A DNA stretch of 32,000 nt from NCBI GenBank assembly GCA_965279305.1, contig OZ257143.1, positions 1,470,001-1,502,000 on the forward strand, in the 5' to 3' direction. The notes below the pieces were generated by a model. That model was not told the DNA's origin, did not search any database, and saw only the letters and a program-made list of their open reading frames with translations. This DNA comes from Gammaproteobacteria bacterium (lineage in GTDB: Bacteria > Pseudomonadota > Gammaproteobacteria > JBIOEC01). Made by a program: the position numbers and the translations under genes. Shown one piece after another: positions 15,029 through 25,648 of this stretch (within the stretch, counting starts at the first letter, position 1; every line of letters starts with the position of its first letter).

Positions 15029-15790
15029 CTAAGCATATTCTCCCTTTGTCCTCTCAGGCCATTGCCTATAACAATGAACCTGATGAGGGCTAAAATGACC
15101 CTGATAGGCCAATGCCGCTTGGTAAGATGGATCTAAAGAAATCAATGTTACCTGATAGGAATCATTTTCAATAATGAAGGGCTCTGCTGAAAGTATATTT
15201 ATTTTATCTAGTGGATAACTAAGTCCACATCCTAAACATTTTAATAGCGCCTCCTTTTGTGTCCAAATCTCAAAAAATAGCTTATTTTGATCTTTATGTG
15301 GAACTATGGAAAGTGTCTTATATTCTTCAGCCGAAAAGAAATGCTGAGCTATGCTCATAAAATCAAAGTTTGAGATCATAAATTCTATGTCTACCCCAAT
15401 GTTTTGATATTGAGAAATTGAGATCAATATATAGTTACCTGCATGTGAAAGATTAAATTGAATATCCCTTATGTTTTGATGGTGTTTTATCCGCGGTTTT
15501 CCAAAGGATGAATAGACAATATGGATATCAGTAGGAGGTAAAGCTAAATATTGCCCTAGTAAGTAACGCAACGCTCCACGAGCAAGAATGTAACGTTGGC
15601 GATCCTTCTCAAATATATATTTTTTTGATTTCTCCTGTTCATCGGCAGCCAAAAAAGACTGGAGTTGCAATTGATGAGGGGAAAGTTGATCGAGTGTAAA
15701 GCACCATAAATGAATGTTATCACTCGGTAAAACCCAGTTATTCAGACGTAAGGGAGGTGTTATTGGAAGTTCAATTTTTAAAAAAAACAT
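15029..15790 (-). CDS. Sfp-type 4'-phosphopantetheinyl transferase
   Basis: 253 aa with FGKP, FNLSHAGNYILI, IGVDIE and WTQKEALLKCLG (the W/KEA motif). Confidence 0.8.
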   Translation of the reverse strand: MFFLKIELPITPPLRLNNWVLPSDNIHLWCFTLDQLSPHQLQLQSFLAADEQEKSKKYIFEKDRQRYILARGALRYLLGQYLALPPTDIHIVYSSFGKPRIKHHQNIRDIQFNLSHAGNYILISISQYQNIGVDIEFMISNFDFMSIAQHFFSAEEYKTLSIVPHKDQNKLFFEIWTQKEALLKCLGCGLSYPLDKINILSAEPFIIENDSYQVTLISLDPSYQAALAYQGHFSPHQVHCYRQWPERTKGEYA

Positions 15791-16269: not shown

Positions 16270-16663
16270 ATGAACCACAAGCTGGGGCATGTAAGGATCC
16301 ATGAAGTCAAAGAATTACCTTCCCCCTTTGTTAAATTGAATGATTGTTCTATTTCTGATTTTGCAGCGAAATTAATTTTTGAAACGCATAATGAAATTTC
16401 ATCATTATTGCATAATATTGATGATTACTTTCGCACCGTCTTTATACGGAATGCCATAACCTCTTGCTAGTGAGTTATCAGAGCTCGCTAATACGGTCGA
16501 ATCAACTGGTTGGAAAATTAAATCTGCAGAAAGAATAGAATACAAAGGTAACGACGCTGCTATTGAAGATTTTAAAAAGAAGAAAGGACTGAATATTAAG
16601 CTTGATAATAATGGAAGGACTAATTTGCCAGCATGGCATTTGGCCCTTCAAGTCACCGTCTGA
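16270..16663 (+). pseudogene. Possible frameshifted or degenerate gene (two abutting ORF pieces), family unknown
   Basis: ATG 16270 is preceded by GGGAGAA, and this piece runs to TAG 16470. From 16472 the +1 frame continues with protein-like sequence (ELSELANTVESTGWKIKSAERIEYKGNDAAIEDF...PAWHLALQVTV) to TGA 16663. Confidence 0.25.
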
Positions 16664-16689: not shown

Positions 16690-18126
16690 ATGTTCCAGAA
16701 GTATGCTTCATTTGCCGGGTTGAGTCTTGGTTTCTTTATTATTATGATGGACATAACCACTGTACCATTGATGTACCCAACCCTTATGAATGTGTTTGAT
16801 GTTAATCCGGCTATGGTCGCTTGGGTCAATAATATTTATCTCATTACTTATGCTTCATTTATTCTTTTAGGAGGTCGGCTTGGAGACTTCACAAATCGAA
16901 AGATTGTATTACTGATTGCTTATTTGGCTATAGGGGTAGGAGCAGCAATTAGTGGTGCAGGACAAAGCTTGTCAGATGTAATTATTGGTCGCGCATTGAT
17001 GGGTGTAGGAGCGGGATTATTGACACCACAGAGCATGGCATATATTTCTATTCTTTTTGCGAGTGGAGGTAGAGGAACTGCACTGGGTATCTGGGGAGCT
17101 GTAGCTGGTATTGCCGCTGCTACTGGGCCTATTGTTACCGAGATATTCTTGACAATGGGGGATTGGCGTTGGGTGATGTGGATCAACATTCCTATCGTGC
17201 TTGTTTGTTTTTTAATTTCCGTTTTGAGTTTACCCAATGTTCCCGGCCGTGGTATTAAATTCTGGGACACTACTGTAAGTGTTTTGTGTGGAGCGTGTTT
17301 GGCAGGAATTATTCTTGGAATCCAATTCATTAATGCGTCTAAATCAATTATAAGCATAGGTGGTGCTCTTTTTATAATGGGAGGTGTGGCTATAAGTGTC
17401 TTGATTAGAAATGAATTGAAGAAAAAACAGGGATACATTTTGTCACCCGAATTATGGGTTGATAATATTTTTCTCAGAATATGTTTAATTTCAGGGCTAC
17501 TTGGATTAAGTCTAACAGCTTTTTATCTTCCTTTAGTATTTCTTTTAGACGTACGAATGAATTTAGGCCCTGTGGCTATAAGCATGGTCATGTTTACTAT
17601 CGCGCTGGCTAATGCATTAGTTGGACCATTCGCAGGTAATCTTTCAGACCGTATGGAGCCAGAAATAATTATTAGACGTGGTTTGATTTTATTTGCAATT
17701 GCAAATGCTTTACTTGGTTTTATTGGTATATTCCTGCCTGAAGGAATTTTGGCCTTAGTAGCACTTTTTGCCGTTATGTTTATTGCTGGAGCGGGTACTG
17801 GTTTAGCTTTTGCGCCTCTTGCTAATTTAGCCGTGGGTCGTGCTCAAGTAGCAACTCTAGGTCGTGCTGCCGCTTTTTTCAACTGTGCGCGCCAAATATC
17901 AAGTGCATTAGGTGGTGTGATTGTAGCTATTGTTTTTGATTGGATAATACGCTTACAATTAGAACATGACATTGAAATAACTACTACAACCCTTCGTGAA
18001 TCATCGACTATTACTGCTAATGCCACTTTAGCTTGTTTTTTGTTTATTGCTATTAGTTTGTCGGTAGCTGCTTATCTATCTTGTAGAAGTGAGCAGGAGC
18101 TTGTAGTAGATGAATCTGGGGCTTAG
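16690..18126 (+). CDS. MFS transporter, DHA2 (EmrB/QacA-like, about 14 TMS) drug/metabolite exporter
   Basis: 478 aa and hydrophobic throughout. The N-terminal motif IIMMDITTVPLMYP resembles the DHA2 LDxTIVNVALP motif, and GRLGDFTNRK resembles motif A. Confidence 0.85.
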   Translation: MFQKYASFAGLSLGFFIIMMDITTVPLMYPTLMNVFDVNPAMVAWVNNIYLITYASFILLGGRLGDFTNRKIVLLIAYLAIGVGAAISGAGQSLSDVIIGRALMGVGAGLLTPQSMAYISILFASGGRGTALGIWGAVAGIAAATGPIVTEIFLTMGDWRWVMWINIPIVLVCFLISVLSLPNVPGRGIKFWDTTVSVLCGACLAGIILGIQFINASKSIISIGGALFIMGGVAISVLIRNELKKKQGYILSPELWVDNIFLRICLISGLLGLSLTAFYLPLVFLLDVRMNLGPVAISMVMFTIALANALVGPFAGNLSDRMEPEIIIRRGLILFAIANALLGFIGIFLPEGILALVALFAVMFIAGAGTGLAFAPLANLAVGRAQVATLGRAAAFFNCARQISSALGGVIVAIVFDWIIRLQLEHDIEITTTTLRESSTITANATLACFLFIAISLSVAAYLSCRSEQELVVDESGA

Positions 18127-18488
18127 TATCTGTTGTAATGCACAATTTTAGTTGGTAAAGTAAGCTTGTGTATAAGTTCCAAAAATTCGGATTATGATAT
18201 TGAATCATTCAAGTTATTGTACGGACCATGTGAGTTTCTGACTAAGTGTTCGCTATCCTTAAGGTGATATAGGATGGTATGAAAAAGAGTTGCTTAAGCA
18301 CTGAGAAGCAAGCAAGATTACTGGTGAGATATATATTAGTGGTACTTTTTTTGTCATATGCTAGATTAAGGTGTACCTATGACAAGAGAAAGAAGAAGCT
18401 CTATGCGGGTTACGGGATAAGTGAAGCAGCAAATGATGATTGGGCGACAGAATAAGAGTCACTATTGACACAATCGAAGGTATTATTG

Positions 18489-19523
18489 ATGACAAATTCA
18501 ACTTCTTTTGGGATAAGTGCATTTGGATATTCATTTGGCGAAAAACAAAATGTGGAAGAAACTGCATGCAATTTTGTTTCTGATCCGGAAAGAGTTTTTA
18601 AATGGGATTGTCAAACCTACTATCGTTCACCCCCTGATCGATTTGCCCTTGATCTGGCAACTGATGCGGCACGTGAAGCTATAAGTAAAGCAAATATCGA
18701 CCCTAATAGTATAGATTTAGTAGCATTTGCTTCAGCAGAAATAGCAGAATATTTATACTGGGATTCCTCAGTTGCACTTGCACGTGCACTGGGCATTGAA
18801 AGAACGCAAACAATGCTACTAAATAATGAAGGTTGCAGTGCAGGGATAAGAATCTTTGGAGCCATTGCAGGAGTCTTTGCAACGCAACCGGAAATTCAAA
18901 CTGTTTTAGTAGTAATAGTTAACCGTGTGAGTGAATATCACAGGAATCGTATGAAGGTTGTTAATTGCATACTAAGCGACGGAGCTGTAACTGCCGTTTT
19001 ACAACGTGGCCATCCTCATAATCAATATTTGGCTTCAGACCATTTCGTCTATCCAGAATTTTGCGATTTTTTTCGAATGGATTATGGTGGAACAAAAGCC
19101 CCCATTACTCCTGCAGGTTGGACTTGCCATGATGAGCATGGTTACGATAAAATATATGAACACTTTGGTGATGATATAGAGAGAATGCAAAACTTTTTAA
19201 CAGTACAGCGTAATGAACGGTTAGCAGAGGTGGTTCAACGTTCTTGTGCACGTGCTAATATATCTAAAGATGATATTTCACATTTCTTTTATGTTGCTGA
19301 TTCTCGCCCAGGAGCTATTGCAGAAATTGTAAAACCTTTTGGAATTCCTATCGAAAACACTAACCTTGAATTAGCAAGAATGTATGGGCATATGGGGGCT
19401 GCTGATCAATTTTTTTCTTTAGGAAAATTTATAGAAAGTAGACATATGGGACCGGGAGATATAGCCGCCATGGCGGGTATTTCATCCGGAATTCAATGGT
19501 GTTCCACTTTGTTTAGAGTATAA
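18489..19523 (+). CDS. KASIII (FabH)-like enzyme of the DpsC/CerJ acyltransferase type (Cys, His-x4-Asp)
   Basis: The nucleophile is in NNEGCSAGIR. The FabH HQAN region reads YVADS, so the His is missing. The FabH GNTSAAS region reads GHMGAAD. I set the start at ATG 18489; the track uses TTG 18465. A 4-nt gap separates it from the NRPS gene. Confidence 0.7.
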   Translation: MTNSTSFGISAFGYSFGEKQNVEETACNFVSDPERVFKWDCQTYYRSPPDRFALDLATDAAREAISKANIDPNSIDLVAFASAEIAEYLYWDSSVALARALGIERTQTMLLNNEGCSAGIRIFGAIAGVFATQPEIQTVLVVIVNRVSEYHRNRMKVVNCILSDGAVTAVLQRGHPHNQYLASDHFVYPEFCDFFRMDYGGTKAPITPAGWTCHDEHGYDKIYEHFGDDIERMQNFLTVQRNERLAEVVQRSCARANISKDDISHFFYVADSRPGAIAEIVKPFGIPIENTNLELARMYGHMGAADQFFSLGKFIESRHMGPGDIAAMAGISSGIQWCSTLFRV

Positions 19524-19527
19524 TCTG

Positions 19528-22500
19528 ATGAATGAAACTATTTTCCAAGCATTTGAAGAACAAGTTAAAAAAACACCTGATTCTATTGCACTTCTTTTTA
19601 AAGAAGAAAAACTTAGCTATAAAGAATTAAATGAAAAATCTAATCAAGTCGCTAGATCCCTGCGTAATCTCTACAAAAAAAATATAGGATTCGACCTTAA
19701 ACCGGATACTCTTATTGGCATTTGTGTTGAACGTAGTTTAGACACCGTTATTGGAATATTAGGAATATTAAAAGCGGGTGGTGCATATGTGCCAATTGAT
19801 ATTGCCTATCCAGAAGGACGAATCCAATTTTTATTAGAAGATACTAAAAGCCCTTTTATCGTGACGCGGAGGCATTTGCAAGAGAAATTAAATAAAATCC
19901 ATAACAACACATTGCATCAGTTTTTCTTAGACGATCTTTCTTATGATAATGAAAGCAAAGATAATTTAAGTATTATACTAGAACCCAATCATTTGGCCTA
20001 CATTATATATACATCAGGAACTACCGGAAAACCAAAAGGTGTTATGCAGACTCATCATAATGTTATGCGCCTATTTACGGCAACACAGGATGTATTTGAA
20101 TTTAACGAAACAGATGTATGGACATTATTCCATTCCTATGTATTTGATTTTACGGTGTGGGAGTTATTGGGTGCTTTAATATATGGTGGAAAACTGGTAA
20201 TACCCAGTCTTGATGAGGTTAAAGATACAAGTAAGTTTTATGATTTATGCGAAAAACATAAGGTTACTGTGTTAAATCAAACACCATTAGTCTTTTATCA
20301 ATTTATTGAGGAAGCAATTAATCGTAAAGAAAAACTGAATAGTTTAAGATGCATAATTTTTGGTGGAGATTATCTTAATATTTCTCAATTGAAACCTTGG
20401 TGGAATCAGTATGGTTTTCTAAAACCTAAATTAATTAATATGTATGGAATTACTGAAACAACGGTATTTGTTACACATAAAATCCTCACTGAAGCGGATA
20501 TAAATAAAGGTTCTATCATTGGCACTGTAATTAAAGATCAAAAAGCTTATGTTTTGGATGAGAATTTAAAACCCGTACCCGTCGGAGTTGTTGGAGAATT
20601 ATATGTGGGTGGTGCTGGTCTTGCCAGAGGATATTTGAATAGAGAAGAAGTAACACAGGAAAGTTTTATTATCAATCCTTATGCCACAAATGAAGATCTA
20701 TTGAAAGGCTATAACCGTATTTATAAAACGGGAGATTTAGTCAAATGGTCTACAAATGGGGATTTAGAATATATCGGCCGTAATGATAAACAAGTTAAAC
20801 TACGCGGCTTTCGAATAGAACTGTTAGAAATTGAAAGTATTTTAAACACTTTTACTGGAATAAAACAAAGCACGGTATTGTTAGATAAGAAAAGCAACAA
20901 TCCATATTTAATAGGTTACTATCGTTCAGAAGCAAAAATAGATGAGGAAATATTACGATCACATTTAGCTAAACATCTACCGGATTATATGGTCCCCAAC
21001 GTTTTAGTCCATTTAAACAAGTTTCCCATTACTATCAATGGAAAATTGGATGTAAACGCATTACCTTGTCCCAATTTTAATTCTACTCAATCTTCCATAA
21101 CACTCAAAAATGAGATTGAAAAGGATGTGGCTGCAATTTGGTCGGAAATTTTAGGAATTGATATAATTGGCACAAATGAAGATTTCTTCAGAATTGGAGG
21201 TGACTCAATTGTAAGTATAAAACTAGTCCTAAAATTGAGAAATAAAGGGTATCATTGTAATGTAAAAAATATATTTGAAAATAGAACCATTGAAAGCCTA
21301 AGCCACTTTTTGAAATCATCTGATATACAATCTAATAAAATTGAAGCAGAACAAGGGTTGTTAACTGGCGAGGTTGATTTATTACCGATTCAACAATGGT
21401 TTTTTAAAAACAAATTTGATAAGCAGAATCATTGGAATCAATCTTTTTTAATCAAGGTTCCATTATTGGATGTTAATAAATTAAATCATGTCCTTGAGAA
21501 ATTAATTGAGCATCATGATGTGTTACGGTTGGTTTTCAAAAAGACAACAAATTTTTATAAACAATTTTATTTGAAAGAAATTAAAATTCCTCTCATTAAT
21601 ACCTTGGATAGATCTGAACTCTCTGATCAACAACTAATTAATATATTTACCAAATGGCAAAGTGATTTTGATATAGAGAATGGTCCTTTATGGAAGATAG
21701 GCTATGTTACTGGTTATAAAGATAATACCGCTCGGATATATTTTGCCTTGCATCATCTTATTATAGATTCTGTTTCATGGAGAATTTTGATTGATCATTT
21801 GAAATGTTTGTATGAAAGTAAGGAATTACCCCCAAAAACCAGCAGCTACCGTCAATGGGTGAGGGCTGTGCAACATTATGCGACTTCGAATAATCAACAA
21901 TTAAGTTATTGGGAACAACATTACATCCCTCAAGTACTAGAAGATGATTTTAAATTTCTTAATGAAAATACCGCACATAATATTAAAAATATTAATCTTG
22001 TCACATTAAATGAAAGTTTGACGAAAATTTTATTAAGGAAAGCCAACAAAGCCTATCATACCGAAATTAATCACTTGTTACTCACTGCCTTAGGATGTGC
22101 ACTAAGGGATTTAACGAATAAAAGTGAACATATTATTCGTCTTGAAGGGCATGGTCGTGAAAAAATCAATGAAATTATAGATGTTAGTCAAACTGTCGGC
22201 TGGTTTACAATACTTTATCCTGTCAAGCTTATGGTGAATGACTCATTAGAAAAGTCTATTCTATCTATCAAAGAAATTTTAAAAAGTATTCCTGACAATG
22301 GAATTGGATACAGTGCACTTAAATATGCAAATAGCGAAAATTCTCTTTGTAAACATTGTCCATCGGGAATTAGCTTTAATTACTTGGGCCAGTTTGATAC
22401 AGAAACCAGTTTGTGGCAAATTGCCGCAGAAAACTCTGGAAATAATTACGGTGCTAATGCTGATGGAAATCTACTAACGATCACAGGCTGGGTTATTGAT

Positions 22501-22641
22501 GGTAAATTAGAATTTGAAATCGTAAGTTGTATGAACGCAATCAAGAGTGAACAATTTTCAAAATTCTTTCAGTCTATTTTAGAAGAAATAATAGTACATT
22601 GCGCAGATTTAGTTAGTAGCGACAAAAAGGCGTTAGTTTAA
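19528..22641 (+). CDS. Stand-alone NRPS module with adenylation-thiolation-epimerization (A-T-E) architecture
   Basis: A-domain cores: LAYIIYTSGTTGKPKGV, NMYGITE, GELYVGGAGLARGY, YKTGDL, GRNDKQVKLRGFRIEL, NGKLD. T domain: FFRIGGDSI, with the Ser codon at 21205-21207. E-domain cores: PIQQWF, HHLIIDSVSW, LLLTALG, EGHGRE, QTVGWFTILYPV, PDNGIGYS, FNYLGQ. Confidence 0.9.
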   Translation: MNETIFQAFEEQVKKTPDSIALLFKEEKLSYKELNEKSNQVARSLRNLYKKNIGFDLKPDTLIGICVERSLDTVIGILGILKAGGAYVPIDIAYPEGRIQFLLEDTKSPFIVTRRHLQEKLNKIHNNTLHQFFLDDLSYDNESKDNLSIILEPNHLAYIIYTSGTTGKPKGVMQTHHNVMRLFTATQDVFEFNETDVWTLFHSYVFDFTVWELLGALIYGGKLVIPSLDEVKDTSKFYDLCEKHKVTVLNQTPLVFYQFIEEAINRKEKLNSLRCIIFGGDYLNISQLKPWWNQYGFLKPKLINMYGITETTVFVTHKILTEADINKGSIIGTVIKDQKAYVLDENLKPVPVGVVGELYVGGAGLARGYLNREEVTQESFIINPYATNEDLLKGYNRIYKTGDLVKWSTNGDLEYIGRNDKQVKLRGFRIELLEIESILNTFTGIKQSTVLLDKKSNNPYLIGYYRSEAKIDEEILRSHLAKHLPDYMVPNVLVHLNKFPITINGKLDVNALPCPNFNSTQSSITLKNEIEKDVAAIWSEILGIDIIGTNEDFFRIGGDSIVSIKLVLKLRNKGYHCNVKNIFENRTIESLSHFLKSSDIQSNKIEAEQGLLTGEVDLLPIQQWFFKNKFDKQNHWNQSFLIKVPLLDVNKLNHVLEKLIEHHDVLRLVFKKTTNFYKQFYLKEIKIPLINTLDRSELSDQQLINIFTKWQSDFDIENGPLWKIGYVTGYKDNTARIYFALHHLIIDSVSWRILIDHLKCLYESKELPPKTSSYRQWVRAVQHYATSNNQQLSYWEQHYIPQVLEDDFKFLNENTAHNIKNINLVTLNESLTKILLRKANKAYHTEINHLLLTALGCALRDLTNKSEHIIRLEGHGREKINEIIDVSQTVGWFTILYPVKLMVNDSLEKSILSIKEILKSIPDNGIGYSALKYANSENSLCKHCPSGISFNYLGQFDTETSLWQIAAENSGNNYGANADGNLLTITGWVIDGKLEFEIVSCMNAIKSEQFSKFFQSILEEIIVHCADLVSSDKKALV

Positions 22642-23712
22642 CTTTCTTTCTTGTGCGATTTTTCTAAAATTTTCAAGAGCTTCAGCAGCAGTTAATTCTT
22701 GGCCTTGTAAAACATCGTTAGCGGGTATAATTTTATAGCGCATATTTTCTGGTATTGAATATTTTGTTGGCAAATACAATTGATCTAGCCCTATACCAAA
22801 AGCACAATTTTCTTGCCCTAAAACTCGAAAATAATGCCTTAATCGATTAGATTCATCTTTAATAATAAATTTTTTCATTTCTGGATCATGACATCCATAT
22901 GTCAAATAATACTCCACATTGTTATTTTCCATTTTACGAACAATATCAACTAAATTGTTATAAAGAACTTCTCCCGGATAAAGCTCCCTATACATTCCTG
23001 AATTTCCTGAACGTGCTCTTGCAGTTTCAGGGTAAGGTGGGTTCATTACAACAAAGTCGCCCGTTTGGAGATCAGATAATGCATGCAAAAAATCACCACT
23101 TTTTAAAATAACATTATTTTTGTTCAAAAGATTTGAGGTTCTATCAACCTCTTCAAAAAAAACTTCTAATGATAGAGAGGCTTCATCAAGGTAACGTTGT
23201 ATTGTTTTTCCTTTTATATTAACTTCTCTATAAACAATATTACCTTGATCATCATGAAGAAGTATCCCACCCCAAGAATGATTAATAATAAAGGGTAATA
23301 ATAATGATTTTTCATCCAAATTTGCTTGATTATAATCACTAATTATTTTTAAAAAAAATTCTTTTTTGGTATCTGAGTGGTCATATTCGCGTATCAATGA
23401 TTCATACTTTGATTTTACTCTCTTTGGTGCTTCTTTGATTAGGCATAGAGTATTAATGAGTGCTTCATCACTATCATTAATGATATATTGGTCTGCTAGA
23501 CCTAGTTCCATCGCTGCTAAACTCCATGAGGCACTTCCAGAAAGCGGATCAAAACAACGTTTAAATTTTTTGCCTTGCGAATTTGCTATAATGACTGCAA
23601 AATGATCATCAAGTAAGTTCTTGTCAATTTCCATCCGACCAGAGTGCATGGGTAGTGTTAGGTTTCTATTTCCAAGATAATGTAAGAGTCCGCCTTTATT
23701 TTTTGATAGCAT
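22633..23712 (-). CDS. Dam-like (D12 class, alpha-type) N6-adenine methyltransferase, orphan
   Basis: Motif I CFDPLSGSAS (aa 53-62) is followed by YIINDSDEALINTLCLIKE. Motif IV is NPPY (aa 224-227), about 170 aa downstream, which is the alpha-class order. The gene is very AT-rich, and its 3' end overlaps the NRPS 3' end by 9 nt. Confidence 0.55.
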   Translation of the reverse strand: MLSKNKGGLLHYLGNRNLTLPMHSGRMEIDKNLLDDHFAVIIANSQGKKFKRCFDPLSGSASWSLAAMELGLADQYIINDSDEALINTLCLIKEAPKRVKSKYESLIREYDHSDTKKEFFLKIISDYNQANLDEKSLLLPFIINHSWGGILLHDDQGNIVYREVNIKGKTIQRYLDEASLSLEVFFEEVDRTSNLLNKNNVILKSGDFLHALSDLQTGDFVVMNPPYPETARARSGNSGMYRELYPGEVLYNNLVDIVRKMENNNVEYYLTYGCHDPEMKKFIIKDESNRLRHYFRVLGQENCAFGIGLDQLYLPTKYSIPENMRYKIIPANDVLQGQELTAAEALENFRKIAQERKLN

Positions 23713-24016: not shown

Positions 24017-25648
24017 ATGTCAAATGACCTGATTTATCTAAAAGAAGACGCTTATTTCGAACCTTTGATAAATCACTGGTTTGCGTGGTCTTATCTTATT
24101 CCACCGGTTCAGGCTTCACGCTATATCACTAACACTCATAAAAGGATCATGTCTTCCTTCGTTGAAGACACGCAAGTGCACATCTTTGGGTCAAAAGAAC
24201 CAGCACTCGCAGGCGGTGACTTTCTCAACGCTCGTGACGATCAGGTGAAAGACATCAAAGCATTGCTGGCGGAGTTCGATGAAAAGCATGCCGATGTAGT
24301 TAAGCTTTCTGAAGCAGTACAGGAGCTCGACGAGATGATCCGCGCACATATCAGCGGCGAGTCTATTGAATATATGTATGAAAAAGTTCCTCTGCCGCTC
24401 AAAGGCTTCGTCGAAATCGGTATGGATATGAACCACAACCCCTGTTATCGTTTGCTGGAGCATTTGCTTTACAACTCAGAGCATTATCGCAAATCACTAC
24501 AAAGTATCTACTTCGGTTTACTTTCCAAGATCGAAGAGCGTCCTTTCTGTTTTTCGACACCGCGTTTGGCCGATGAGAACCACATTCAATTGGCGATGGA
24601 TTTCTGTGCACCAGAGGTAGATATTTTAGTCAAGTCGCGCACTGAAGGCGTACCGTGCGAGATGGTGAATGATATATTTGCGCGCTTCGAGACTCGCGGC
24701 GGCCTTGATTATCGCGAATTGTTCACTACTGAGCCGCCGTCAAGACGCCGTGAGCCGGTGAGCGATGACAGCTTGAAATTGACTTTCCTCGGTCATGCCT
24801 CGTTTATGATAGAAACCAAAGATATCAATATTTTAATTGATCCGGTAATTCCCATTAGAGGCAAAAAATATGCCGATGACGTGATTAGCTATTCTGAGCT
24901 ACCCAAGAAAATCAACTATATTTGCATTACCCACAATCACCATGACCACTATAACCTTGAAACCTTGCTACAGTTGCGCCATAAAACGGACAAGCTGGTT
25001 CTACCCATCAACAATGGTGGAACATTGCCGGATCCGTCGATGAAGCTGATAGCCAAACAATTGGGCTTTAAAGTAATTGAGGTGGACGACTTTGATGAAA
25101 TCGAGATCCCAGATGGCAAGATAACGGCGATCCCATTTCTTGGCGAACACGGCGACCTCAATGTGCGTTCAAAAACCGTGTGGCTTATAGAACTCAAAGG
25201 TAAGAAATACTTCTTCGGCGCCGATGCCACCAACTATAATCCGCAAATGTACCGTCATGTCCAAAAGTTGGTTGGGGATGTCGATGTATTGGCTATCGGA
25301 ATGGAATGTGTCGGAGCTCCCTATTCTTGGCTCTATGGTGCACTTAACACTAGGGACGTCAGTAAAAACATCACAAATTCACGTCGTCTGAACGGCTCCA
25401 ATGCCGATCAGGCTTATCATATGGCAGATACTTTCAATGCTAAACAAGTTTATCTTTATGCAATGGGCATGGAACCTTGGTACAAGTACTTTATGGGCTT
25501 AGTTTATAACGAGAACTCACAGCAAATAATTGAGTCAGATAAGATGATTAAGCGCTGTGAAAATAAAGGAATACCATGTCAACGCTTAGCTCTTAACTGC
25601 TACATTCTGACAGATTTAGGTAGTAGCCACAAAATGGCGCCAGTTTAA
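24017..25648 (+). CDS. Two-domain protein: unknown N-terminal domain of about 250 aa plus a C-terminal MBL-fold hydrolase (NAPE-PLD/UlaG-like)
   Basis: LKLTFLGHASFMIETKDINILIDPV, ICITHNHHDHYN (HxHxDH), FLGEHGD and FFGADAT. The gene is clearly GC-richer than its neighbours. Confidence 0.7.
   Translation: MSNDLIYLKEDAYFEPLINHWFAWSYLIPPVQASRYITNTHKRIMSSFVEDTQVHIFGSKEPALAGGDFLNARDDQVKDIKALLAEFDEKHADVVKLSEAVQELDEMIRAHISGESIEYMYEKVPLPLKGFVEIGMDMNHNPCYRLLEHLLYNSEHYRKSLQSIYFGLLSKIEERPFCFSTPRLADENHIQLAMDFCAPEVDILVKSRTEGVPCEMVNDIFARFETRGGLDYRELFTTEPPSRRREPVSDDSLKLTFLGHASFMIETKDINILIDPVIPIRGKKYADDVISYSELPKKINYICITHNHHDHYNLETLLQLRHKTDKLVLPINNGGTLPDPSMKLIAKQLGFKVIEVDDFDEIEIPDGKITAIPFLGEHGDLNVRSKTVWLIELKGKKYFFGADATNYNPQMYRHVQKLVGDVDVLAIGMECVGAPYSWLYGALNTRDVSKNITNSRRLNGSNADQAYHMADTFNAKQVYLYAMGMEPWYKYFMGLVYNENSQQIIESDKMIKRCENKGIPCQRLALNCYILTDLGSSHKMAPV

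Follow-up and report, generated by a model that had tools for sequence, protein, structure and literature searches.

The product of the ehp cluster is D-alanylgriseoluteic acid, a griseoluteic acid whose hydroxymethyl group is esterified with a D-amino acid (PMC3175449). Pelagiomicins, which are structurally analogous to griseolutein (PMC12360287), have been reported from the genus Microbulbifer (PMC7345734). Here we analyze a stretch of 32,000 nucleotides from a Gammaproteobacteria bacterium (GenBank assembly GCA_965279305.1, contig OZ257143.1, positions 1,470,001 to 1,502,000 of the forward strand; hereafter, the window), with a focus on a nonribosomal peptide synthetase (NRPS) gene whose protein consists of an adenylation (A), a carrier (T) and an epimerization (E) domain. 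We propose, with somewhat better than even confidence, that this A-T-E protein serves a phenazine O-aminoacylation cassette as the module that loads and epimerizes the amino acid. We propose this role because of four features of the genome: (i) the clade of a neighboring CmlA-type hydroxylase; (ii) an EhpJ-type exporter; (iii) the scar of an EhpI-type gene; and (iv) a distant phz block that is missing exactly these functions. The genes concerned are listed by window position.

16412-16660, plus strand: decayed 3' fragment of an EhpI-type phenazine O-methyltransferase gene (the last ~83 codons, with one in-frame stop)
16690-18126, plus strand: predicted EhpJ-type MFS exporter (Pfam MFS_1, 4e-43)
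18465-19523, plus strand: KASIII-like (FabH-fold) acyltransferase (Pfam ACP_syn_III_C)
19528-22641, plus strand: the A-T-E NRPS
24017-25648, plus strand: predicted CmlA-type diiron beta-hydroxylase of carrier-bound amino acids (Pfam CmlA_N, 1.3e-76, plus MBL fold)

The closest relatives of the hydroxylase are 74-79% identical to it, against 55% for those of the NRPS. The window enzyme is 74-77% identical to the hydroxylases of phenazine cassettes in Microbulbifer variabilis (locus L019) and on a metagenome contig (locus L018). A maximum-likelihood tree of 44 CmlA homologues resolved these three as (M. variabilis,(window,L018)) with support of 100/98, and placed the homologues from lipopeptide contexts outside this phenazine-cassette clade. 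In both L018 and M. variabilis the operon runs methyltransferase-MFS-SDR-ACAD-A-peptidyl carrier protein (PCP)-KASIII-CmlA amid phzA/B, D, E, F, G and EhpF- and EhpG-like genes. The same cassette order, minus CmlA, is found on a Pantoea agglomerans plasmid of ~207 kb and corresponds to the ehp cluster. The window exporter is 65% identical over 472 amino acids to the MFS protein of the M. variabilis cassette, 58% to that of L018 and 53% to that of the Pantoea ehp plasmid. Directly upstream of its gene, as in ehp-type operons, lies the EhpI fragment, which by tblastn matches the methyltransferase of the M. variabilis cluster over residues 142-224 with 64% identity and is 77% identical at the DNA level to an intact genomic copy at 33979-34228. 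The EhpI-EhpJ junction of an ehp-type operon has thus persisted here as a scar. We found no other carrier near the beta-hydroxylase gene in the window. On the L018 contig, whose hydroxylase is the 77% relative, an F-box-like protein adjoins the phenazine cluster (L018:20829-21380); this contig may come from a similar host-associated bacterium with an undisrupted cassette order. A hydroxylase-NRPS fusion that we considered in homologue P0018 was rejected, as its C-terminal MBL domain is glyoxalase-II-like and not CmlA-like.

We searched the whole genome with the M. variabilis cluster proteins by tblastn. A contiguous ehp-type phenazine block is present on the minus strand at about 23.0-34.7 kb of the genome, with the following identities to the M. 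variabilis proteins.

Methyltransferase: 74%
SDR: 72%
ACAD-like protein: 66%
PhzG: 72%
EhpF: 74%
EhpG: 60%
PhzA/B: 56%
PhzF: 54%
DAHP synthase: 43%
PhzD: 48%
PhzE: 38-46%
Small open reading frame (orf97): 38%

This search found no MFS, A, PCP, KASIII or CmlA gene in the block. The only matches to those five in the genome are all in the window: the exporter (65%), the hydroxylase (74%), the A-T-E protein (25%) and the KASIII-like protein (24%). It likewise returned no orthologue of EhpM, EhpN or EhpO elsewhere in the genome.

The NRPS open reading frame is uninterrupted and its 1037 codons encode a protein of 1037 amino acids. Pfam assigned AMP-binding to residues 9-370 (1.2e-86), AMP-binding_C to 434-506, PP-binding to 533-595 (1.3e-11) and the condensation superfamily to 615-1031 (5.8e-62). 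A first-pass annotation of the locus, made by a model from the sequence, had called the last domain an epimerase on the basis of seven core motifs, and had read a GGDSI carrier motif ahead of it. Each of these strings occurs once in the protein, as follows.

21124-21312, plus strand: carrier (T/PCP) domain, GGDSI with Ser560 (Pfam PP-binding and motif position)
Amino acids 557-561: carrier motif GGDSI
21370-22620, plus strand: E domain, with seven E motifs
Amino acids 620-625: E1, PIQQWF
Amino acids 742-751: E2, HHLIIDSVSW
Amino acids 848-856: E3, NHLLLTALG
Amino acids 873-878: E4, EGHGRE
Amino acids 888-899: E5, QTVGWFTILYPV
Amino acids 922-929: E6, PDNGIGYS
Amino acids 950-955: E7, FNYLGQ

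We compared the last 432 residues with all PDB chains by phmmer. The best scores were to E domains: 239.6 bits for BacC (bacitracin synthase 3), 234.1 for GrsA, 220.8 for TycB, 216.5 and 214.8 for TycA, and about 204-213 for PvdL. Condensation (C) domains scored at most 34.5 bits, with LgrA best and TycC and others below it, which leaves a gap of about 200 bits. The E-values against solved E domains, 5e-70 to 2e-59, mark this match as homology and not chance. The BacC E-C didomain served as an internal control, its E part scoring 221 bits and its C part 19. We also used the window's E domain to score 107 carrier-following domains from the 119 closest homologues. The scores were bimodal, with 27 domains at or above 162 bits, 80 at or below 50 bits and none between. 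The E motifs align column for column with the GrsA E domain, and His743 (HHxxxD), Glu873 (EGHGRE) and Asn951/Tyr952 (FNYLGQ) are present and align with their GrsA counterparts. In GrsA, mutagenesis marks these residues as important for catalysis. By homology, then, there is strong support for the last domain being a canonical NRPS E domain. The epimerase call stands, and the last ~430 amino acids did not classify as an LCL or DCL condensation domain, which the first-pass annotation had named as the refuting outcome. Its use of GGDSI as the sign of an E-feeding carrier holds in part. The motif is compatible with that role, being found in 25 of the 27 E-feeding carriers, while none of the 37 GGHSL carriers among the 107 precedes an E-type domain; yet it is not diagnostic, as 32 GGDSI carriers precede C-type domains.

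An A-T-E order is also that of the GrsA/TycA-type initiation modules, which pass a D-residue to a downstream C domain, and the closest homologues of the window protein are modules of multimodular NRPSs, specifically internal C-A-T-E modules with the full threonine (Thr) code and COM tails. However, the window protein ends 9 residues past the conserved HC(A/x)D/E-K stretch, with no TPSDF/COM donor tail. In GrsA and in homologues P0005 (TASDF), P0006, P0009, P0060 and P0064, that stretch is followed by TPSDF and a tail or next domain; in homologues P0084 and P0018 the motif is a looser T-x-S-D. Counted over the alignment, (T/A)xSD is retained by GrsA and by six of the seven homologues, five of these with TPSDF or TASDF. 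The genome is a single contig of 1,869,759 bp, rated 100% complete, and it contains no condensation domain (PF00668, E <= 0.001): the two matches are both the E-like ends of lone A-T-E proteins. No MbtH gene was found in it either. Since the genome has no C domain, the epimerized residue must leave the carrier by another route. We therefore regard a role as an initiation module as barely credible. The protein does not appear to be a peptide-initiating module, and the ordinary NRPS-module role implied by the first-pass annotation fits poorly with the missing COM tail and the lack of a C domain in the genome.

Other NRPS-type proteins were seen along the way. The second lone A-T-E protein (C1:1324793-1328074) has 1093 amino acids, and is 34% identical to the one in the window; its code, DGFFVGGTFK, is Val/Ile-like, and its E-like domain reads ELHGRS where EGHGRE is expected. 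A type II thioesterase of 244 amino acids is encoded next, the pair spanning C1:1324793-1328805. A 1578-amino-acid NRPS-like protein (C1:1576689-1581422, minus strand) begins with a formyltransferase-like part, continues with an A domain (DAFFLGGTFK) and a GGHSL carrier, and resembles a reductase at its end. A 985-amino-acid A-T-thioesterase protein (C1:38986-41943, minus strand; code DAWTFTCFGK) is set apart from the phenazine cluster by ~4 kb with housekeeping genes in between.

A candidate for the alternative release route is the KASIII-like protein. Its gene has a probable start at ATG 18489 (344 amino acids) and stops 4 nt short of the NRPS start. The best solved relatives are ChlB3, CerJ and DpsC (PDB 7eqi, 3s3l and 4xs7), which are distant at 26-47 bits. 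Cys124, His309 and Asp314 are invariant among 12 members of the KASIII-like family. ChlB3, CerJ and DpsC are FabH-fold acyltransferases and not condensing enzymes. The window protein shares 24-28% identity with EhpO-type proteins, against 50-59% with members of its own subfamily, and the EhpO-type proteins share 49-67% with one another; it is not an EhpO orthologue.

We examined 80 loci of this KASIII subfamily (L023-L102, mostly actinomycetes). An FkbH-type loader adjoins the gene in 55 of them and an acyl carrier protein (ACP) in 53, and several of the FkbH+ACP loci sit inside phenazine clusters. In eight actinomycete phenazine clusters, including those of Streptomyces monticola, Saccharopolyspora taberi, Nocardiopsis halophila and Actinopolyspora mortivallis, A and PCP genes lie immediately upstream of the KASIII gene. 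Griseoluteic-type clusters thus offer a precedent for pairing this subfamily with an amino-acid loader. The subfamily looks like a general set of carrier-to-acceptor acyltransferases. The FkbH and ACP neighbors of the closest relatives had suggested tetramic-acid- or tetronate-type chemistry, which we set aside as less probable because the loci are phenazine clusters, a griseolutein-type ester explains the pairing, and the Cys-His-Asp pattern is that of acyltransferases.

Some further observations concern the same family. In ~17 further Streptomyces KASIII loci, a distant AMP-binding gene lies just downstream instead. The closest KASIII relative (59% identity) is on a metagenome contig of 3.2 kb (L011); after its KASIII gene, L011:3087-3173 holds the first 29 codons of a frame, MQYIQNNNSSKEFWLNEFNGFDGLRELKI, which resemble the middle of a condensation domain, and the contig ends there. 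Among 40 relatives' genomes, only G002 has a match to the KASIII-like protein, and this match is distant (23%, E 3.5e-11) and not an orthologue.

The A-T-E protein could instead be a self-contained maker of a D-amino acid with hydrolytic release, or could donate its aminoacyl group through the KASIII-like enzyme to a non-phenazine acceptor such as a lipid or a host molecule. Lone A-T-E units do recur, as the genome encodes a second one with a type II thioesterase, and the KASIII subfamily is also found outside phenazine clusters, for example in Salinispora. We nevertheless consider this improbable, as the EhpI fragment, the EhpJ-type exporter and the cassette-clade hydroxylase point to the phenazine pathway that is missing these functions.

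Several observations do count against assigning the A-T-E protein to a phenazine cassette. About 418 kb separate the two loci on the circular map, so their co-function is deduced from gene content and not from linkage. The window's A domain and KASIII-like protein are not orthologues of EhpM and EhpO (24-28% identity). CmlA homologues at 73-79% identity also occur in unrelated lipopeptide NRPS clusters. Lastly, no E-type match was found in the eight actinomycete phenazine clusters, so that an E domain lacks precedent in such cassettes; among the 80 KASIII loci there was one weak E-type hit (27% over 293 amino acids, locus L086).

The locus might also be a decaying, non-functional remnant cut from a larger NRPS. 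It has a mosaic base composition, with a G+C content of 30-33% in the NRPS gene, 39-40% in the KASIII and MFS genes and 44% in the CmlA gene, against 38.9% for the genome; a pseudogene fragment adjoins; and a genome of the same genus (G001), which is just 66% complete, has no orthologue of the NRPS. Against decay, the 1037-codon frame is open, all A, T and E core motifs and catalytic residues are intact, and so are the neighboring genes, with the KASIII gene ending directly before the NRPS start. A remnant, in which the pocket change described below would be drift, is thus very improbable in our view. The simplest history is that EhpM, EhpN and EhpO were lost from an ehp-type cassette in which the MFS and hydroxylase genes stayed, and that this cassette gained a KASIII of another subfamily together with an A-T-E module excised from a multimodular NRPS, whose pocket would later have changed from His to Phe.

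We derived the pocket code of the A domain by pairwise alignment to GrsA-PheA. The GrsA sequence used yields the published DAWTIAAICK at the published positions 235/236/239/278/299/301/322/330/331/517. In the window protein the corresponding residues are D207, F208, W211, N250, I277, G279, M305, V313, F314 and K506.

19528-21078, plus strand: A domain, Thr clade, code DFWNIGMVFK
20467-20469, plus strand: codon TTT, Phe314 (PheA position 331), the sole departure from the Thr code

This reproduces the code that the first-pass annotation had extracted by hand, and no different one emerged; its count of nine matches in ten to the Thr code DFWNIGMVHK, with His331 replaced by Phe, is likewise borne out. 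The TTT codon is two substitutions from either His codon, CAT or CAC. The domain falls in the Thr clade, with PvdD as the named homologue. Its solved relatives in the PDB include the Thr-specific Thr1; 1amu ranks 7th, after multi-domain LgrA chains. We extracted 848 A domains from the best 150 representatives of a library of 1.84 billion proteins, and the 15 best single-domain matches among them all read DFWN[IV]GMVHK. The domain would, on this evidence, be of Thr ancestry. We then counted domains with the first eight code residues of the Thr type in two samples. His stands at code position nine in 104 of 104 and 108 of 108 other Thr-type pockets (212 of 212 together), and Phe only in the one from the window; the 150 representatives were ranked by summed scores and are mostly giant multimodular NRPSs, so other Phe variants may exist beyond them. 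Where Phe does occupy the ninth position in both samples, the codes are mainly of the Val/Ile type, such as DAFWLGGTFK and DAFFLGVTFK. A literature search found no mention of DFWNIGMVFK, and none of DFWNIGMVHK together with hydrogen bonding.

Mutants of the corresponding His are described in two Thr-activating domains. In the first A domain of PvdD, His299Ala gave pyoverdines with Val and Leu/Ile replacing Thr, while His299Asn behaved like the wild type (PMC11267755). In the polymyxin A10 domain, H570A strongly reduced Thr adenylation (PMC13584550). The caveat in the first-pass annotation that the His-to-Phe change may shift the substrate is favored by both. Its inference that the module activates Thr or a Thr-like beta-branched residue and epimerizes it, in the manner of D-allo-Thr, holds as far as the Thr clade and the E domain are concerned. 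Thr itself, and with it D-allo-Thr, is doubtful, because the locus contains a cassette-clade CmlA-type beta-hydroxylase and Thr is already beta-hydroxylated. The substrate shift is the more likely half of that inference, since losing the His lowers Thr activation and admits Val, Leu or Ile.

The company of the hydroxylase is informative in this respect. The three loci with a cassette-clade CmlA all have Phe331: DFWNIGMVFK in the window, DYWSIAVVFK in L018 and DYWSLAAVFK in M. variabilis. The eight actinomycete cassettes have no CmlA, and their codes all have His: DVWSVAMVHK (four loci), DVWGVAMVHK, DVWTVAMVHK, DFWNFALVHK and DFWNVGMVHK (an actinomycete Thr code). A beta-hydroxylase needs a C-beta that is not yet hydroxylated, and this, taken with the PvdD result, favors as the most economical substrate an isostere of Thr, for example Val. 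We put the chances of Val or another non-hydroxylated small residue at about even, with 2-aminobutyrate as an alternative to Val; Thr is a distinctly weaker candidate, and the remaining probability goes to residues other than these. A more specific version, in which the His331-to-Phe change retuned a Thr-clade A domain for Val and the product is D-3-hydroxyvalyl griseoluteic acid, the mirror image of the pelagiomicin type, is offered tentatively.

The alternative is that L-Thr is still loaded, the code change being nearly neutral, and that D-allo-Thr is esterified onto the phenazine by the KASIII-like enzyme while the hydroxylase is idle or acts elsewhere. The nine-in-ten code match and the placement of the whole domain in the Thr clade agree with this, as do the Thr/Ser-like codes of the actinomycete phenazine clusters with the same KASIII, one of which is exactly DFWNVGMVHK. 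Still, we consider it unlikely, given that His is retained in every other Thr-type pocket counted, that His-to-Ala lowers Thr activation (PMC13584550) and admits Val, Leu or Ile (PMC11267755), that a cassette-clade beta-hydroxylase is present with no other carrier nearby, and that the Thr-coded actinomycete cassettes are without CmlA.

The preference for a non-hydroxylated residue such as Val has its own difficulties. The contacts of the Thr hydroxyl in the structure of Thr1 are to the main chain and to water, not to a side chain, and it is not read directly by the His (PMC6668435, PMC13584550); for this reason the effect of a His-to-Phe change cannot be read from sequence. Phe is nearly the size of His, so Thr might still fit, and the Asn at position 278 is kept in the window's pocket. 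The EhpM-like domain of Pantoea also has Phe331 (DFWSVCTVFK), and its product carries D-Ala. Finally, pelagiomicin A may be the 3-hydroxyvaline ester of griseoluteic acid, and such a structure would match a Val substrate exactly; the literature searched did not confirm it, and it serves only as a lead.

Taken together, we envisage the following pathway for the proposed aminoacylation cassette. The Sfp-type 4'-phosphopantetheinyl transferase encoded upstream would prime Ser560 of the carrier, and is the likely primer of this domain. The A domain would adenylate a small amino acid branched at C-beta and load it onto the carrier; Val or another Thr isostere with no hydroxyl is the most likely choice. 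With the residue tethered there, the CmlA-type diiron enzyme would then hydroxylate its C-beta, and its C-alpha would be equilibrated by the E domain. The KASIII-like enzyme, through its Cys-His-Asp residues, would transfer the D-aminoacyl group as an ester to the hydroxymethyl of a griseoluteic-acid-type phenazine supplied by the ehp-type cluster ~418 kb away, and the EhpJ-type MFS protein would export the product. We predict a D-(beta-hydroxy)aminoacyl griseoluteic acid, which would be analogous to D-alanylgriseoluteic acid and to the pelagiomicins. In this scheme the EhpM/EhpN/EhpO trio would have been replaced non-orthologously by the A-T-E protein and a KASIII of a different subfamily.

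Two further genes of the locus belong in this description.

15029-15790, minus strand: Sfp-type 4'-phosphopantetheinyl transferase (Pfam ACPS, 1e-16; AASDHPPT_N, 3e-13)
22633-23712, minus strand: D12-class (NPPY) methyltransferase-like gene (NCBIfam dam, 4.6e-12, below cut-off)

The D12-class gene lies between the NRPS and CmlA genes and is convergent with the NRPS gene, which it overlaps by 9 nt. It has one paralogue only in the genome (59% over 351 amino acids, at 18495-19547), which lies beside the distant phenazine cluster. Both may encode enzymes that tailor small molecules and do not methylate DNA. Just past the biosynthetic genes, on the downstream side, the window encodes an ankyrin-like membrane protein ending in CTIL (25828-26676, minus strand) and a eukaryote-type protein kinase of 577 amino acids (27007-28740, plus strand; Pkinase, 6.7e-46). 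This pair fits a host-associated lifestyle.

The presence of an E domain and a near-Thr code is by itself a routine annotation, and a correct one; what the locus adds comes from its context. An E domain with no condensation partner that apparently feeds a KASIII-like acyltransferase would be a route to a D-aminoacyl ester not reported before and, if true, the first E domain known in phenazine tailoring whose partner is an acyltransferase and not a condensation domain. The A domain offers a natural test of the specificity code, useful for NRPS engineering, in that one otherwise invariant residue is changed beside a beta-hydroxylase. Furthermore, the analysis joins two loci ~418 kb apart into one predicted aminoacylated-phenazine pathway with a concrete product prediction; the producer would be an uncultured gammaproteobacterium that has a small genome and eukaryote-like genes.

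The locus can be compared with several described systems. With GrsA and TycA of gramicidin S and tyrocidine synthesis (PDB 1amu, 5isw, 2xhg and 9bfd), the window protein shares the A-T-E order, an E domain scoring 214-234 bits with all seven motifs, and a GGDSI-type carrier. Unlike them, it has no COM donor tail, no C partner in the genome and a Thr-like, not Phe-like, pocket. Its code matches nine of the ten residues of Thr-activating A domains (PvdD A1, polymyxin A2 and A10, and Thr1, PDB 5n9w), but where these have an invariant His at PheA position 331, it has Phe, and so it lacks the complete set of ten. The CmlP/CmlA pair of chloramphenicol synthesis is similar in that the residue on a lone NRPS module is beta-hydroxylated in trans, while carrier-bound, by a diiron enzyme with a CmlA_N domain and an MBL fold. 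CmlP, however, is an A-T-R protein that loads p-aminophenylalanine and releases it reductively, whereas the window protein ends in an E domain and needs a separate release enzyme. For that enzyme, ChlB3, CerJ and DpsC have the Cys, His and Asp in common with the KASIII-like protein, although its donor would be an aminoacyl-S-carrier, which is not a known donor for those enzymes.

Among phenazine systems, the Pantoea ehp cluster (EhpM/EhpN/EhpO) is alike in combining an A domain, a carrier and a KASIII-like enzyme beside the EhpI methyltransferase and the EhpJ MFS protein, and in making a D-amino acid ester. Unlike in the window, its A and carrier domains are separate proteins, there is no E domain and no hydroxylase, and its A domain and KASIII are just 25-28% identical to those of the window. 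The cassettes of M. variabilis and L018 share with the window the hydroxylase (74-77%, same clade), the MFS protein (58-65%) and Phe331 in the A pocket. They differ in having stand-alone A and PCP proteins, no E domain and a KASIII of the EhpO subfamily, and they are contiguous with their phz genes, whereas the window's cassette lies about 418 kb away from its own.

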